Position numbers and translations under genes: made by a program
Source: Thermoanaerobaculia bacterium
GTDB lineage: Bacteria; Acidobacteriota; Thermoanaerobaculia; Multivoradales; UBA5704
DNA: 18,529 nucleotides
Assembly: GCA_044226625.1 (NCBI GenBank)
Contig: JBGAGQ010000090.1
Location: forward strand, 1 to 18,529
Reading direction: 5' to 3'
Shown here: positions 15,701-18,529 of the stretch, piece by piece
How the letters are laid out: each line of letters starts with the position of its first letter
How positions within the stretch are numbered: position 1 is the stretch's first letter
The notes under the pieces: generated by a model
Database searches by the model: none
Told to the model about the DNA's origin: nothing
The model's input: only the letters and a program-made list of their open reading frames with translations

Positions 15701-18529
15701 GCTGCCGAGCGACCGCTCCCTGCCGGCGCTGCGGACGCTCGTGGTCGCGGGAGAGGCCTGCCCGCCCGAGCTCGCCGAGACCTGGAGCGTCGGGCGCAAG
15801 GTCATCAACGCCTACGGCCCGACCGAGAACACGGTATGCGTCGCGATGCACCTCTACGTGCCCGGTGCCGCACGTCTGCCGCTCGGCGCACCGATGGCGG
15901 GGATGGAAGCCTACGTGCTCGACCGGTGGGGACGTCTCGCGCCGTTCGGCACGCCCGGCGAGCTCGCGGTCGGCGGGATCGGCGTCGCGCGCGGCTACCT
16001 CGGAGCGCCAGACCTCACGGCCCAGCGGTTCGTGCCGCATCCGTTCGGTTCCGCGCCGGGGGAGCGCCTCTATCGCACGGGCGATCGGGTGCGATGGGAT
16101 GCGCACGGCGACCTCGAATTCCTCGGGCGCATCGACACGCAGGTCAAGGTGCGCGGTTTCCGGATCGAGCTGGGGGAGATCGAGCGGGCTCTCCTCGCGC
16201 AACCCGGGGTCTTGGAGGCCGCCGTGGTGGCGCGCTCCGAGGGTGGAACGGAAAAGCGCCTCGTGGCCTACGTCGTTCCGCGGGGCGAGGCTCGTGCCTC
16301 GTTCGACGTCGCCGGGCTCCGCGCGTCCCTGACGCGATCACTCCCGGACTACATGCTTCCCTCGGCGATCGTGGTCCTCTCCGCGATGCCGAAGAACGCG
16401 AGCGGCAAGGTGGACCGCAAGGCGCTCCCCGATCCGCGGGTGGTGGGGGCCGCCGGGCGCGAAATCGTGGCGCCTCGGAATCCACTCGAATCGTTCCTTG
16501 CTGGCCTGTTCGCCGAGACGTTGCACCTCGACGAGGTGGGGGTCGACGAGAACTTCTTCGAGCTCGGCGGCCACTCGATCTCCGGAGCGATGCTGATCAA
16601 CCGCCTCCAGGAAGAGCTGGGCGAGATCGTCCACGTGGTCGTCATGTTCGACGCGCCGACGGTCGCGAGGCTCGCGGAGTTCCTCCTCGCGAACTACCCG
16701 GCGGCTATTGCCCGGCTCGGGCTCGGCACCACGGACGGTGCGCTGCCGGCCGCCGGGCCGATCGACGAGCGGCAGCTCGCGCGCTTCGACGCGCTGGTAC
16801 CCGTGCGGGGCCCCGTCCGCCTCCCGTCGGGACGGAAGAACCAGGGGGTGGCGTTCGTCCTCTCGCCGCCGCGCTCGGGCTCGACGCTATTCCGCGTCAT
16901 GCTCGCGGGCCACCCGTCGCTGTTCGCGCCCCCCGAGCTCGAGTTGCTCCCTTACGACGACCTGCGCGAGCGGCGCGACGACTTCCCGGGCCGCTACAAC
17001 CAGTTCCTCGAAGGGGCGGTGCGCGCGGTGATGGAGCTCGACCGCTCGACCGCCGAGGAGGCCGAGGCGAAGCTCGACGCTTGGGAGCAGGAAGGGATCT
17101 CGATGGCCGAGGCCTTCGCGCGGCTCCAGAAGGCGGCGGAGCCTCGCCTCCTGGTCGACAAAACCCCCGGCTACTCGCTCCATCCGAGCATCCTCGAGCG
17201 CGCCGAGCAGATGTTCGAAGGGGCGCGATACATCCACCTGATCCGCCACCCCTACGGCATGATCCGGTCGTTCGAGGAGGCGAAGCTCGACCAGGTGTTC
17301 TTCCGCGCCGAGCACGACTTCTCGCGTCGCGAGCTCGCAGAGCTGGTCTGGCTCGCCTCGCACCGAAACATCCTGGCGTTTTTGGAGGGGATCCCGGCGG
17401 AGCGCAAGCACGTCGTGGTGTTCGAGGAGCTGGTGGCCGATCCGGAGCGGGTGCTGCACGGTGTCTGCGCCTTCCTGGACGTCGAGTACCGGCCGGAGAT
17501 GGCGGCGCCCTACCAGGCGACGCAGGGGGAGAAGTCCGCGCGCATGACCGACGGCCTTCACTCCTGGTCGCGGATGATCGGCGACGTCAAGTTCCACACT
17601 CATGGACGGGTCGACCGCGGCGTCGCCGATCGGTGGAAGGCCGAGATCTCCGAGGACTTCCTGGGCGAGCCGACGCGGGATCTCGCCGAGAGGCTCGGCT
17701 TTCCTCGGTACGATCCCGCCCTGGCCCGGCTCGCGCCGCTCCGTCCGGCCGGCTGGCACGAAGGCGAGGAGCTGCCGCTCTCGTTCGCCCAGGAGCGGCT
17801 CTGGTTCCTCGCGCGTCTCGCGCCGGAGAGCAGCGCTTACAACATCCAGACGGGAGTGCGCTTGCGCGGTGCGCTCGACGTCGGCTCGCTCGCCGGAGCG
17901 CTGGCTGCGGTCGTCTCGCGCCACGCGATCCTGCGCGCCCGGTTCGAGGCCGGAAATCGAGGACCGGTTCAGACGATCTCGCCGTTCGCCGCGCCACGCG
18001 TGCCGCTCCTCGACCTCTCGGCGCTCGAAGAACGCGCGGACAGCGAAGGGCGGCGGCTCGCGACCCTCGAAGCCCGGCGACCGTTCGATCTCGCGCGCGG
18101 CGGACTCGTGCGACTGTATCTGGTGCGCCTCGCGCCGGAAGAGCACCTCGGCCTCTTCTCGATGCATCACGTGGTGGGTGACGGCTGGTCGATGGGGCTC
18201 CTGGTCGGCGAGGTCGGCACGCTCTACGCCGCGGCGCGCGATCAGCGTCCGGCGAGGCTCGCGCCTCTCGCCGTGCAATACCCCGATTTCGCGCTCTGGC
18301 AACGGTCGCATCTCACCCCGGATGCGATCGGCGCGGAACTCGACTACTGGCGCCAGGCGCTCGCCGGGATCGACCCCTTGCCGCTGCCCACCGACCGCCC
18401 GCGGCCGCCGATGCTCTCACCCGCGGGAGGACTGCTCGGATTCTCTTTCCCCCCCGAGACGGTCGCGGGGCTCGATCGCCTCGCGCGGTCCCATGGGCTC
18501 ACGCGCTACATGGCGTTGCTGGCGAGCTT
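3711..18529 (+). CDS. Hybrid type I PKS-NRPS megasynthetase, 3'-truncated by the window: KS-AT-ACP-C-A-T-C-A-T-C-A-T-ST-C...
   Basis: ATG at 3711 follows AAAGGG (3696-3701). All catalytic motifs I located from 3711 to about 18200 start at positions divisible by 3. The ORF track has no closed ORF in this frame after 3711, which fits one reading frame running off the right edge. Confidence 0.95.
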   Translation, partial: MTSSSRSGVEGRGSPSDADDPGGSPEGDQAGERTGLEVAIVGLAGRFPGASDVEALWENLRAGIESIRPLSESEVLAAGIPPAVAADPTWIRAAAELADIDRFDARFFDFSPREAEAIDPQHRLFLECAWQALEDAGLDPERSAGPIGVFVGSSPSLYAIRNALPRGGSMELFGGLMGADKDHLATVTSYKLDLEGPSVAVQSACSSALVAVHFAAQSLLNGECDAALAGGSSIQVPQTSGYRWTEGGIVSRDGHCRAFGQGASGTVFGNGVGAVVLKRLDDAIAARDRIRAVIKGSAVNNDGRARASYTAPRAAGQAKVIRAAQMLAEVDPRTIRYVEAHGTGTPLGDPIEVSALHEAFGKGLPRGSCALGSIKPNLGHLNAASGIAGLIKAALAVERGEIPRTLHGEQPNPAIDWDAGPFYLNAETVPWPEGNGPRRAAVSSFGMGGTNAHAILEQGPPPPASGPSRPLQLLLLSARTETALEAASGRLAAHLEESSEALADVAFTLALGRHRFCHRRAVVARSREEAAERLWSGANGDLEPAASGRAVERRTFFLFPGQGAPLGGIGAGLYAGEPAFRAEIDRCAELLAPHLASALGSGSDRGLAGLLFPSPGPEAEASAAALARTELAQPALFALEWSLARLWQSWGARPEGLLGHSLGELVAATMAGVFELPEALALVALRGRLMQEMPAGAMLAVPLGREALSARQPEGLEIAAENAPDLCVVSGPKAAVERFEREIVSELAPGTSCRRLATGWAFHSAAMEPVLEPYRAAIARMKRGEPTLRFVSNVTGAWITPEQAVDPEYWTTHLRRTVRFSEGLALLGGEGDAALLEIGPGRSLSTLARRHPASASALILPPLAAVQGNGAREREVEICLGALGRLWASGAAIDEGALFRSERRRRVALPTYPFERQRYWLEAAPIAREPQPSSAVQAERPASDRMANDAVPAGERPASSTPRATHARPALGVAYAAPESATERVVAEVWAELFGFSEVGIHDDFFELGGSSLTATGLAARLRARLGVEVPLDEIFGRPTVRRLAAWIDGRAAPNAATPRPSAEAASGVGPGRQETSKGERRPAVVETEVPLSFAQERLWLLDRLVPDNAFYTLGSAQRLAQAVDVPALAAALGEVARRHETLRSSFGDREGRPRLVVRSEVEVRLPQVDLSALGKERREAEATRASRGELRRSFDLSRAPLMRTVLLRLDAAEHALVYSFHHIISDGTSLGLFGRDLLAIYRAFAARKPSPLPPLPIQFSAVAARQRERFAAGGIDRHLAYWSRRLAGMPITELPADRPRTPLPTHRGVTLRTEIGPEIVGPATALARSRAGSAFMGWLAAFYALLSRYACQTDLAVGVPIAGRSHRDEEDLIGFFVNNLVLRADLSGNPTFADLFGRVRELALEAYSHQEVPFERLVEELSPRRDLSRNPLFQIMFNLMPRGRQNEGAESLGGLLLLRSGTAPFDLQVYLFEGPDRLFLAWELATDLFEVATIDRLARHYRNLLDGAVADPEIRLSELPLLLSAERDELSRLGSGPDTPRAGATTWTVPERFATQARLTPAAPAIVTAEETLDYATLAARVDRLARRLAALGIGAEAKVGIMVERTAALPVAALGTMIAGASYVPLDPAYPAERLAYMAADAGIAALIVDGASAHVAPSLKGSGSTVARIEIDAAGECADRVVTAGRGAPLSAPSRAGLAYTIYTSGSTGRPKGVELPHGALASFLAAMIERPGVGAEDVFVAVTSLSFDIAGLELFAPLLVGGRVVIARREEVADGRLLADLLTRSGASILQATPSGWRVLLASGWGGTPGLKALVGGEALPTALAAELRSKVDGLWNMYGPTETAVWSTFDLVEPGPISIGRPIPGTRVSVVDPGGRQLPYGVPGELWIGGEGVARGYHHRPDLTAERFVPDGLSSNAGARLYRTGDLGRFLPDGRIECLGRTDHQVKVRGHRIELQEIESALAEAPGVLAAAATVHGEADDRKIDAYVVLRPDAPPGAARKEVLAAHLGGRLPEAYLPSSYTSLERMPLTPNGKVDLRALPAPEREDGEVGAPRTATERRLAEIWCELLGVPAVGPESSFFELGGHSLLAMRLLARVREEMGVDLLLRRVFEAPTLAGLAARIDVGGEGGEGEETPPSLAPSAVDAAEALPVEEPASGTPARLDLLLASLKPAVVAPQRLWSASPRSSRNEAPLSFAQARLWLLDRLTPGNPFYNLGGAMRFTGPLDRGVLHAAVREVGWRHDTLRTRFAESAGEPVQIVEPDRPVRVRDVDLVALSGPRAEGELARLACAQFGLPFDLGTPPLLRTWLIRLGAREHALVYAMHHIVSDGWSMSILFGEVARAYDALARRLGSPFAPLPLQYADFAVQQREWFSRGELERQLAYWRERLAALPASELPTDKPRPAVASHRGRTLQTAIEGDLVARLEALGRARSASTFMVLLAGFQALVARYVGEGDSVLGTPVANRTRSDVEGLIGFFVNTLVLRTAVAGDPSFAEQIERAKNAALGAFMHQDLPFERLVEELAPRRDLGRNPLFQLMFNLVNTPAQEGAVGELMMTPLAVSAETALVDLQLYLRLSAGALELRWEYATDLFETATIERLALCYATLLAGAAERPETRLFDLPLLSVSERAELSTLGRGVDGARDLGELGTVPALFAAQALRTPEAPAVIDGAVTLDYATVFARSNALARRLIALGVEREAKVGIALERSASLPIAALGVLASGASYVPLDPGYPADRLAYMAADAGLAALIVDAEGSGNSALETLAPAIVRLMSGGVVEGEGQPEAPEANVGLAQRALPAGLAYTIYTSGSTGRPKGVELPHGALANFLASMIERPEVAPSDVWIASTSLSFDIAGLELYAPLLVGARIVIARRDEVADGRLLADLLRTSGATALQATPSGWRVVLASGWPGDGKLKALVGGEALPPALAAELLPKVGELWNMYGPTETAVWSTLDRVDEGPITIGQPIRATTVHVVDARGNLPPRGVPGELWIGGAGVARGYHGRPDLTAERFLPDPFSGATGARLYATGDLARFTMDGRLQALGRIDHQVKVRGHRIELQEIERVLAEHPGVSAAAATLVGEGEDKRIAAYVVERAGAGLGNGAALREALLDFLRGRLPEAMIPSSISRLETLPLTPNGKVDRKALPTPDSAAISGAAEAITPPRTPIEELLAGIWQELLGGRPVGVESHFFDLGGHSLLAMRLVSRIREVLGVELPLRRVFEAPELGRLAATIERERALAADRRAGEQTEIPPLVRQPRGISSPLSFAQERLWFLEQLSPGTSAYNVSSTVALDGDLDVAALRAALDGIVARHEMLRTRFAVEAGRPVQIVELPSSFPFEQVDLLDLPESERAGRAEALAHEAAHRTFDLGAAPLARALLVRLAVRTWRLTIAMHHLATDGWSNDVIVAEIAALYPAASESRPSPLPDLPVQYADYAIWQRGWLQGEALDRELGWWRAALADAPPLLELPLDRPRPAVQRFEGSRVAFEIPTPLADGLRALGRSRGTTIFMTVLAAFEALLSRIAGVEDLVVGTPIAGRTRSEVEGLIGFFVNTLALRTDLTDDPSFSDLLARVRAATLGAYAHQEVPFERIVEELSPARSRAHSPIFQVHLVVDPLAIDRSAPLPGLTIVPLGQAMEISKFDLTLMATDAGTGRPIYGQLRFDVGLFDAATVERWGRRLLLVVERAMVAPEAPLSTLNLLLPAEESELVAVRSGASAASRALDARGSIRSIAELFLARAEDRPEALAILFEQRRLTYSELADSARRLAFLLRSRGVGAEVRVGLYLERSPRWVESVLAIWLAGGAYVPLDPTLPGERVAAMLADAEVRLVLSEGGLFARLDVGMEEGRGFEAIDLDALELPAVEGFEAATLSGAVDPDQLAYVIYTSGSTGKPKGVAVTHRGLENLAREQGKVFEVLPGPGPEPRVLQFASSAFDASVSEIAVALANGAALVMAAKASILPGFELFTLLRDRAISNVTLPPSALAALPSDRSLPALRTLVVAGEACPPELAETWSVGRKVINAYGPTENTVCVAMHLYVPGAARLPLGAPMAGMEAYVLDRWGRLAPFGTPGELAVGGIGVARGYLGAPDLTAQRFVPHPFGSAPGERLYRTGDRVRWDAHGDLEFLGRIDTQVKVRGFRIELGEIERALLAQPGVLEAAVVARSEGGTEKRLVAYVVPRGEARASFDVAGLRASLTRSLPDYMLPSAIVVLSAMPKNASGKVDRKALPDPRVVGAAGREIVAPRNPLESFLAGLFAETLHLDEVGVDENFFELGGHSISGAMLINRLQEELGEIVHVVVMFDAPTVARLAEFLLANYPAAIARLGLGTTDGALPAAGPIDERQLARFDALVPVRGPVRLPSGRKNQGVAFVLSPPRSGSTLFRVMLAGHPSLFAPPELELLPYDDLRERRDDFPGRYNQFLEGAVRAVMELDRSTAEEAEAKLDAWEQEGISMAEAFARLQKAAEPRLLVDKTPGYSLHPSILERAEQMFEGARYIHLIRHPYGMIRSFEEAKLDQVFFRAEHDFSRRELAELVWLASHRNILAFLEGIPAERKHVVVFEELVADPERVLHGVCAFLDVEYRPEMAAPYQATQGEKSARMTDGLHSWSRMIGDVKFHTHGRVDRGVADRWKAEISEDFLGEPTRDLAERLGFPRYDPALARLAPLRPAGWHEGEELPLSFAQERLWFLARLAPESSAYNIQTGVRLRGALDVGSLAGALAAVVSRHAILRARFEAGNRGPVQTISPFAAPRVPLLDLSALEERADSEGRRLATLEARRPFDLARGGLVRLYLVRLAPEEHLGLFSMHHVVGDGWSMGLLVGEVGTLYAAARDQRPARLAPLAVQYPDFALWQRSHLTPDAIGAELDYWRQALAGIDPLPLPTDRPRPPMLSPAGGLLGFSFPPETVAGLDRLARSHGLTRYMALLAS
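3819..5085 (+). other. Ketosynthase (KS) domain, hybrid NRPS-to-PKS type, catalytic triad intact
   Basis: EVAIVGLAGRFPGA; DPQHRLFLECAWQALEDAG; ADKDHLAT (4245); GPSVAVQSACSSAL (Cys codon 4323); YVEAHGTGT (His 4731); GSIKPNLGHL (His 4848); AAVSSFGMGGTNAHAILE. Confidence 0.95.
5376..6470 (+). other. cis-acyltransferase (AT) domain plus post-AT linker, malonyl-type with a variant motif
   Basis: FLFPGQG; TELAQPALF; GHSLGE (Ser codon 5691); RGRLMQ; WAFHS (5988-6002); LEIGPG; LPTYPFERQRYW. Confidence 0.93.
6639..6858 (+). other. Carrier domain (ACP) of the PKS module; no KR, DH or ER precedes it
   Basis: APESATERVVAEVWAELFG...IHDDFFELGGSSLTA, phosphopantetheine Ser codon at 6744. Confidence 0.9.
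6981..10095 (+). other. NRPS module 1: C-A(Gly)-T
   Basis: C: PLSFAQERLW, FHHIISDGTS (7371), IGFFVNNLVLR. A: AYTIYTSGSTGRPKG (8814), FDIAGL, LQATP, ALVGGE, NMYGPTETAVW, NGKVD. The hand-read pocket code DILQLGMVWK is a glycine-type code. T: FFELGGHSL (Ser 9984). Confidence 0.9.
10302..13440 (+). other. NRPS module 2: C-A(Gly)-T
   Basis: C: PLSFAQARLW, MHHIVSDGWS (10692). A: AYTIYTSGSTGRPKG, FDIAGL (12285), LQATP, ALVGGE, NMYGPTETAVW, same DILQLGMVWK code. T: FFDLGGHSL (Ser 13329). Confidence 0.9.
13530..16700 (+). other. NRPS module 3: C-A(Tyr-type)-T
   Basis: C: PLSFAQERLWFL, MHHLATDGWS (13920). A: AYVIYTSGSTGKPKG, FDASVSEI (15543), NVTLPP, TLVVAGE, NAYGPTENTVC, SGKVDRK. The hand-read code DASTVAAVCK is the tyrosine/beta-hydroxytyrosine type. 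T: FFELGGHSI (Ser 16575). Confidence 0.88.
16836..17703 (+). other. Embedded PAPS-dependent sulfotransferase domain (CurM/Ols-like)
   Basis: 5'-PSB loop FVLSPPRSGSTLFRVMLAGHPSLFAPPELELL (from 16854), LLVDKTPGY, 3'-phosphate-binding YIHLIRHPYGMIRSF, and VVFEELVADPERVLHGVCAFL. Confidence 0.92.
17772..18529 (+). other. Condensation domain of module 4 (partial)
   Basis: LPLSFAQERLWFL...SAYNI; RHAILRARF; MHHVVGDGWS (18162); VQYPDFALWQR; LPTDRPRP. Confidence 0.92.

Follow-up and report, generated by a model that had tools for sequence, protein, structure and literature searches.

What does a sulfotransferase do in the middle of a peptide assembly line? The question is raised by contig JBGAGQ010000090.1 of a Thermoanaerobaculia bacterium (assembly GCA_044226625.1), an uncultured soil-type Acidobacterium. 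The contig carries a hybrid gene of polyketide synthase (PKS) and nonribosomal peptide synthetase (NRPS) modules, in which a sulfotransferase (ST) domain is embedded between a carrier (T) domain and a condensation (C) domain, following a tyrosine-type adenylation (A) domain. The whole 18,529-nucleotide contig is referred to here as the window; it is contig C98 among the 133 contigs of the genome (6.6 Mb, 67.7% G+C, completeness 97.9%, contamination 5.5%). Our analysis suggests that the ST probably sulfates the side chain of the tyrosine bound to the T domain next to it, and that the arrangement belongs to a large family of similar megasynthases.

Domain organization of the megasynthase

The megasynthase and its domains occupy the following positions in the window.

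3711..18527, + strand: PKS-NRPS megasynthase, 4939 aa visible, stop-free, 3′ end cut by the contig end
3819..4934, + strand: ketosynthase (KS), aa 37-408, Pfam PF00109 and PF02801
5379..6230, + strand: acyltransferase (AT), aa 557-840, Pfam PF00698, with GHSLGE and WAFH motifs
6651..6890, + strand: carrier domain of the PKS module, from Pfam and our own domain map; no ketoreductase (KR) comes after it
6951..10112, + strand: module C1-A1-T1, A code DILQLGMVWK (Gly-type)
10281..13463, + strand: module C2-A2-T2, A code DILQLGMVWK (Gly-type)
13506..14867, + strand: C3 condensation domain, HHLATDG
14931..16451, + strand: A3 adenylation domain, code DASTVAAVCK (Tyr-type)
16476..16715, + strand: T3 carrier domain, GGHSI with the phosphopantetheine Ser at nt 16566-16580
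16731..17750, + strand: ST domain, Pfam core at ~16854-17657
16866-16889 (near), 16929-16949 and 17244-17270 (near), + strand: ST motifs PRSGST, PPELELL and RHP..S, respectively
17769..18527, + strand: C4 condensation domain, N-terminal ~255 aa, HHVVGDG at 18165, cut by the contig end

Pfam searches and profiles built from the window's own domains give the domain order KS-AT-T-C-A-T-C-A-T-C-A-T-ST-C, with Pfam counts of KS, AT, 4 PP-binding, 4 Condensation, 3 AMP-binding, and 1 Sulfotransfer_3. The elements of an NRPS elongation module, a C domain with HHxxxDG, an A domain, and a T domain with GGxS, are found in this order. Neither a KR nor a thioesterase (TE) was found by Pfam in the 4939 residues, and the ST lies between a peptidyl carrier protein (PCP) and a C domain, an arrangement that differs from the olefin-forming unit of acyl carrier protein (ACP), ST, and TE.

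The ten Stachelhaus positions were read from an A-domain alignment using the A3 motif anchors. The resulting codes are DASTVAAVCK for the third A domain and DILQLGMVWK for both the first and the second, which we take to be tyrosine and glycine codes, respectively, following Stachelhaus-type tables; the full-text literature yielded no usable paper on these codes. The xAFH motif of the AT is presumably of the malonyl type.

As judged from sequence comparisons, the A-T-ST-C architecture is not an assembly chimera, because the same Gly-Gly-Tyr(ST) order is shared by a paralog on contig C109 of the same genome and by three proteins from other metagenomes (P0046, P0048, and P0050). When window positions 14931-18527 are compared with loci L008-L010, the A3, T3, and ST domains are 72-84% identical to their relatives in other metagenome-assembled genomes (MAGs), and C4 has no relative above ~53% identity over its length. 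This contrast in identity between A3-T3-ST and C4 suggests a recombination breakpoint directly after the ST.

A tblastn search of the genome with the window domains found many NRPS/PKS modules and two more ST copies, both in the T-ST-C arrangement. The C109 paralog is 6786 aa long, and its ST is 83% identical to that of the window. Its modules run KS-AT-T, Gly, Gly, and Tyr(DASTVAAVCK)-T-ST-C, followed by a module with the code DAWQFGLIDK and then by a second Tyr-type module without ST; the ST is therefore module-specific. A C-A-T gene lies before this paralog, and further modules follow after it. The other copy, whose ST is 57% identical to that of the window, is located as follows.

Contig C28, 47571-57767 (L004:9803-19999), - strand: ST protein, A(DFWNVGMVHK, Thr-type)-T-ST-C-A...

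All three ST domains of this genome thus come after an A code for a hydroxy amino acid.

The ST domain belongs to the CurM/OLS family

The ST domain matches Pfam Sulfotransfer_3 (PF13469, aa 4382-4594, E value 1.3e-27) and Sulfotransfer_1 (E value 5.9e-5). It aligns over ~290 residues, with ~50% identity, to the ST structures of the olefin synthase OLS (4gox, E value 1.4e-65) and of CurM (4gbm, E value 4.2e-65). The matches to tyrosylprotein sulfotransferases (TPSTs) are weak and far below those to CurM and OLS (8w5z, E value 2.7e-4; TPST2 entries, E values 0.0065-0.0093). The motifs PRSGSTL and RHPY..S are aligned and identical in the window ST, 4gox, and 4gbm, and are invariant in the NRPS-embedded family described below; we take them to be the 5′-phosphosulfate-binding (5′-PSB) and 3′-phosphate-binding (3′-PB) motifs for the sulfate donor 3′-phosphoadenosine-5′-phosphosulfate (PAPS). 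Glu4409 shares an alignment column with the PPE Glu of both structures (4gox, 4gbm) and, in 8w5z, with the second residue of the Glu pair in GEE; across 186 ST domains of the family, this column is conserved to at least 95%. The PPE Glu is presumably the catalytic base in CurM ST and TPST2. All 62 columns with at least 95% conservation in the same 186 domains are kept in the window. The ST domain is, by these measures, intact.

These results bear out every sequence statement of an initial annotation that had been made from the letters of the window. It had described a complete ST with both PAPS motifs, joined in frame to T3 on one side and to a C domain carrying HHxxxDG on the other, preceded by a Tyr-type A3 and by Gly-type A1 and A2 domains, and internal to a protein without KR or TE, and all of this is what we find.

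A family of NRPS-embedded ST domains that mostly follow hydroxy-amino-acid codes

The ST region of the window protein was searched against large proteins (2716-8644 aa) with a threshold of E <= 1e-10, and 752 of them match. The names of the best 120 of these 752 are mostly those of Thermoanaerobaculia or Acidobacteriota MAGs; a Pseudoalteromonas MAG, Thalassomonas sp. RHCl1, and a Pyrinomonadaceae MAG contribute one entry each. When species-representative genomes were scanned, 233 relatives came up, and the 80 that were kept are without exception MAGs, namely of Thermoanaerobaculia, Holophagales, Pyrinomonadaceae, unclassified Acidobacteriota, one Chloroflexota, and one unclassified uncultured bacterium. 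In a 301-genome sample of the window's class, the ST is present at E <= 1e-40 in 13 genomes (12 other than the window genome), including 3/3 other genomes of the same genus and 6/7 of the same family, and it always lies inside frames that stay open over hundreds to thousands of codons.

We examined 128 proteins, namely the best 120 of the 752, the window protein, and seven proteins from contigs C109 and C28 of the window genome (P0045 being the C109 frame). They contain 186 ST domains in 123 proteins. The element after the ST is a C domain in 141 cases, 132 of which are strict A-T-ST-C; in the others it is a tail of 213-321 aa (23 cases), the protein end (12), a T domain (7), or another ST (3). 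TE Pfam families are listed for many of the proteins with such tails. Terminal A-T-ST units with such a tail, which is probably a TE, occur after Ser-type, Thr-type, Tyr-type, and other codes (e.g., P0005, P0021, and P0049). Five proteins (P0055, P0057, P0059, P0060, and P0062) have the order A(DAEDxGTxVK)-T-ST-T-ST-C, with two T-ST pairs per A domain and a code that is not Ser/Thr/Tyr-type. The window shows the pattern of the family, with A-T-ST-C order, the PPELELLP motif, and an upstream code of the Ser/Thr/Tyr type. The ST family is large, lineage-restricted, and apparently uncharacterized, and the arrangement is not peculiar to the window.

For a tally of the residue upstream of each ST, P0045 was dropped, as were modules whose next two domains are not visible. 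Ser/Thr/Tyr-type codes are found in 148/170 ST-bearing modules and in 40/252 ST-less modules (Fisher odds ratio 36, p 6e-51, uncorrected for relatedness). The share of modules that carry an ST differs among the code classes as follows.

Tyr-type modules: ST in 38/41
Ser-type modules: ST in 53/70
Thr-type modules: ST in 57/77
Gly-type modules: ST in 3/59
Other-code modules: ST in 19/175

An ST that modifies the side-chain hydroxyl of its own module's residue would produce such an association. The initial annotation had proposed that the ST sulfates tyrosine on-line and that a Tyr enrichment in this tally would speak for it, and the comparison lends strong support to that reading.

The upstream residue class is clustered on a FastTree phylogeny of the ST domains, with 15 changes over 149 labeled rows; per class, 7-16 changes are observed vs a shuffle average of 36-49. 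The window ST falls inside a clade of six Tyr-linked ST domains. In proteins carrying two or three ST domains, every ST comes after a hydroxy-residue module of its own, as in P0002 with the order Ser(ST)-Tyr(ST)-Tyr(ST). A dedicated C-domain subtype after the ST was not seen on the C-domain tree, in which the post-ST C domains (137 of 473 rows) are scattered with 68 label changes.

Neighboring genes and genome context

Two genes lie upstream of the megasynthase in the window, both on the opposite strand.

3..791, - strand: cytochrome P450, N-terminal part; continues on contig C81 (L005:7-2661, + strand)
838..3540, - strand: MacB-like ABC permease, 900 aa, MacB_PCD and FtsX; divergent from the megasynthase

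The 5′ end of the window overlaps contig C81 by exactly 140 nt. On C81, the P450 is followed in the same frame by an acyl-CoA-ligase-like AMP-binding region; the two may be fused or may be separate genes that abut. In sequence, the P450 comes closest to BM3/CYP4/CYP3A-type enzymes and does not resemble the carrier-protein-dependent amino-acid beta-hydroxylases. Its type and the adjoining acyl ligase point to the preparation of an acyl starter and not to a modification of tyrosine; the P450 and the ligase may provide a hydroxylated acyl starter. Beta-hydroxylation of tyrosine by this P450 was considered and judged unlikely, given its BM3/CYP4/CYP3A type and the acyl-CoA-ligase-like region next to it. 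The MacB-like permease is a possible exporter of the product. Two other genes of C81 near the cluster encode a protein with a CAP12/Pycsar-type TIR effector domain (L005:2813-3811, + strand) and an 869-aa protein composed of DUF4062, a Ser/Thr kinase domain, and an FGE-sulfatase-like domain (L005:9588-12197, + strand).

For the 3′ continuation of the megasynthase, no contig of the genome has an exact overlap with the 3′ end of the window. A join to contig C28, which starts at the same point of a C domain, was rejected: 3 of the 30 common bases differ, and the C28 start is therefore a different C domain and not the continuation of the window. NRPS/PKS modules are found on at least 17 contigs of the genome (C3, C6, C26, C28, C31, C39, C45, C58, C66, C67, C74, C95, C98, C108, C109, C113, and C133), many of them cut by contig ends, and their share is unusually large for a 6.6 Mb genome.

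An adenosine-5′-phosphosulfate (APS) kinase is encoded in the window genome and in 5/5 relatives tested. It is distant from the ST loci (e.g., at 2.72 Mb in genome G065), and on the question of linkage to the cluster it is neutral. PAPS supply is plausible, the APS kinase being encoded though unlinked to the cluster.

Proposed role of the ST domain

In NRPSs, the slot between a T and a C domain is normally occupied by epimerization (E) domains, which act on the intermediate bound to the T domain of their own module. The position of the ST in this slot, together with the tally of upstream residues, is most simply explained if the ST adds sulfate to the side-chain hydroxyl of whichever residue is loaded on the T domain of its module. 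In the window, the third NRPS module would activate tyrosine and load it onto T3. The ST, as a CurM-type and PAPS-dependent enzyme, would then place sulfate on the tyrosine phenol while the tyrosyl or peptidyl-tyrosyl chain is held as a thioester on T3, and C4 would hand acyl-malonyl-Gly-Gly-Tyr(SO3) to the next module, which lies beyond the contig. A nonribosomal (lipo)peptide with sulfotyrosine would result. We consider this in-cis, on-line O-sulfation of the T3-bound tyrosine side chain at the T-C junction rather probable. The sequences themselves show the domain order, an intact ST, the Tyr-type code, and the association of the ST with Ser/Thr/Tyr modules across the family; the acceptor atom, the timing of the reaction (before or after C3), and the retention of the sulfate in the product are what we infer.

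Several observations weigh against this reading. The assignment of codes to residues follows general rules, and DASTVAAVCK-type codes may also fit beta-hydroxytyrosine. The Fisher p value is overstated, as related proteins are not independent and the sample, the best 120 of 752, was picked by likeness to a Tyr-linked ST. Non-Ser/Thr/Tyr codes precede 22/170 ST-bearing modules, including three Gly-type modules and recurring unassigned codes, so the ST does not always follow a hydroxy amino acid. The His of the PELHLL motif in CurM and OLS, two positions after the putative catalytic Glu, is a Glu in the window (PELELL). The cluster is incomplete, the contig ending inside C4. The initial annotation had regarded the tyrosine phenol as the only obvious acceptor built in the window, since malonyl and the two Gly residues supply no hydroxyl and a KR is missing, but the P450 and acyl-ligase gene beside the cluster could supply another hydroxyl on the starter. 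Finally, the nearest characterized relatives, the STs of CurM and OLS, install a leaving group and not a stable ester (PMC5577590 and PMC5655351).

This last point leads to the alternative that the sulfate is a transient activating or leaving group, as in CurM, and not a stable decoration. Ser-type and Thr-type modules make up 110/170 of the ST-bearing modules, and elimination from a Ser or Thr thioester that carries O-sulfate should be facile. The outcome would be dehydroalanine or dehydrobutyrine or, in terminal modules with ST and TE, enamides. About 23/186 ST domains have the tail of 213-321 aa, with TE families listed for many of these proteins, which mirrors the ACP-ST-TE arrangement. 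In a Tyr module, however, elimination would need beta-hydroxytyrosine, to give dehydrotyrosine, or else the sulfate would have to serve as a protecting or pro-drug group that is taken off at a later stage. A P450 gene does adjoin the window cluster, but it is joined to an acyl-CoA-ligase-like region and not to an A-T pair, and its BM3/CYP4/CYP3A type has been noted above; upstream, the C109 paralog is bounded by a gene for DNA polymerase III alpha, and that side holds no hydroxylase. The class most consistently linked to the ST is the Tyr type, and a phenol sulfate cannot be eliminated. The scattering of the post-ST C domains among ordinary C domains also argues against the idea, and we consider a leaving-group role unlikely; in the Ser and Thr modules and the tailed ST ends elsewhere in the family, sulfation followed by elimination may nevertheless operate. 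The same P450, nearest to fatty-acid-type enzymes and followed in frame by the acyl-ligase-like region divergently upstream of the megasynthase, could instead mean that the ST sulfates a remote hydroxyl of the T3-bound chain, for example that of a hydroxy-acyl starter, and not the tyrosine phenol. The 22 exceptions to the residue rule would fit such a remote acceptor, but the link between ST and Ser/Thr/Tyr codes is hard to explain by it, multi-ST proteins such as P0002 pair each ST with its own hydroxy-residue module, and on its visible side the C109 paralog is accompanied by a C-A-T gene, without a P450. Sulfation of a remote hydroxyl is, in our view, quite unlikely.

The exchange of His for Glu in the PELHLL motif could also indicate that the ST is catalytically dead or purely structural; a related idea is that the gene is silent. 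Almost every one of the 186 NRPS-embedded ST domains has PELELL, however, which therefore is no private defect of the window ST; the PAPS motifs are intact, no conserved column is lost, and long open frames with the ST recur in 12 other genomes of the class. An inactive ST or a silent gene is thus very improbable. A broader version of the proposal holds that the ST in the E-domain slot is a general in-line tailoring device of NRPSs from uncultured Acidobacteriota, giving sulfotyrosine after Tyr modules, and a leaving-group sulfate after Ser and Thr modules and in terminal units with ST and TE. If terminal ST units after Ser or Thr carried out decarboxylative elimination as CurM does, the peptide would end in a C-terminal enamide. 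We hold such a two-outcome device to be doubtful; if true, it would be a route by sulfation and elimination to dehydroamino acids or C-terminal enamides, parallel to phosphorylation and glutamylation in lanthipeptides.

Comparison with known systems

Sulfation of nonribosomal peptides, as far as we found it described, is carried out by stand-alone enzymes or by an ST on the starter unit, and bacterial sulfotyrosine is known from ribosomal peptides. StaL and Teg12-14 sulfate aromatic hydroxyls of nonribosomal glycopeptides as stand-alone enzymes after assembly. The literature searched contained no A-T-ST-C NRPS and no nonribosomal sulfotyrosine made by an ST in cis, subscription journals, supplements, MIBiG, and antiSMASH-DB being outside the search, and the novelty of an ST inside an amino-acid elongation module is accordingly provisional. 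The initial annotation had been aware of no characterized cluster with this arrangement. In uncultured Acidobacteriota, the 752 large proteins make it common; the novelty belongs to the family and not to the window alone. If an ST fused at the T-C junction goes with Ser, Thr, and Tyr modules, this would amount to a novel logic of in-line tailoring, with sulfation sites predictable from the sequence, and the T-ST unit, if this is true, would be portable for the engineering of sulfated peptides. The megasynthases of this family, which number in the hundreds among uncultured Thermoanaerobaculia and related Acidobacteriota, would then represent a sizeable untouched class, probably of polyanionic lipopeptides. 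A 2022 review on sulfotyrosine mentions TPST modules in NRPSs as a future prospect (PMC9372746).

The STs of CurM and OLS resemble the window ST in sequence family, PAPS motifs, the PPE Glu, and the position directly after a carrier domain of a megasynthase. According to PMC5577590, the CurM ST acts on an ACP-bound beta-hydroxyacyl chain, the sulfate driving decarboxylative elimination, and terminal ACP-ST-TE units are found in the curacin, olefin synthase, and haliamide systems. These units terminate a PKS, whereas the window ST is internal to an NRPS, between a T and a C domain after a Tyr-type A domain, without TE or KR.

NRPS-embedded STs that act on a glycerate starter are known from cyanopeptolin (OciA, PMC2533009) and dysinosin (DysB, PMC6520454) biosynthesis, where a stable sulfate ester is thought to result. 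Compared by their descriptions, the STs of OciA and DysB share the loading region with a glyceric-acid (FkbH/GA) unit, while the window ST comes after the third amino-acid module; no Pfam family of such a glycerate-loading unit was found in the window megasynthase. SulN of sulfazecin biosynthesis is described in PMC11298585 as carrying out PAPS-dependent sulfonation of a PCP-bound tripeptide before release. It differs from the window ST, which is in cis, in being a stand-alone enzyme that acts in trans and N-sulfonates diaminopropionate, the sulfamate serving beta-lactam formation. Since both CurM ST and SulN act in this way, the sulfonation of carrier-bound intermediates has precedent. TPSTs and RaxST would yield the same tyrosine O-sulfate as the window ST but act on ribosomal proteins or peptides. 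Seen beside these enzymes, the window ST would be of the CurM type but recruited to a new place, the T-C junction of hydroxy-amino-acid NRPS modules.

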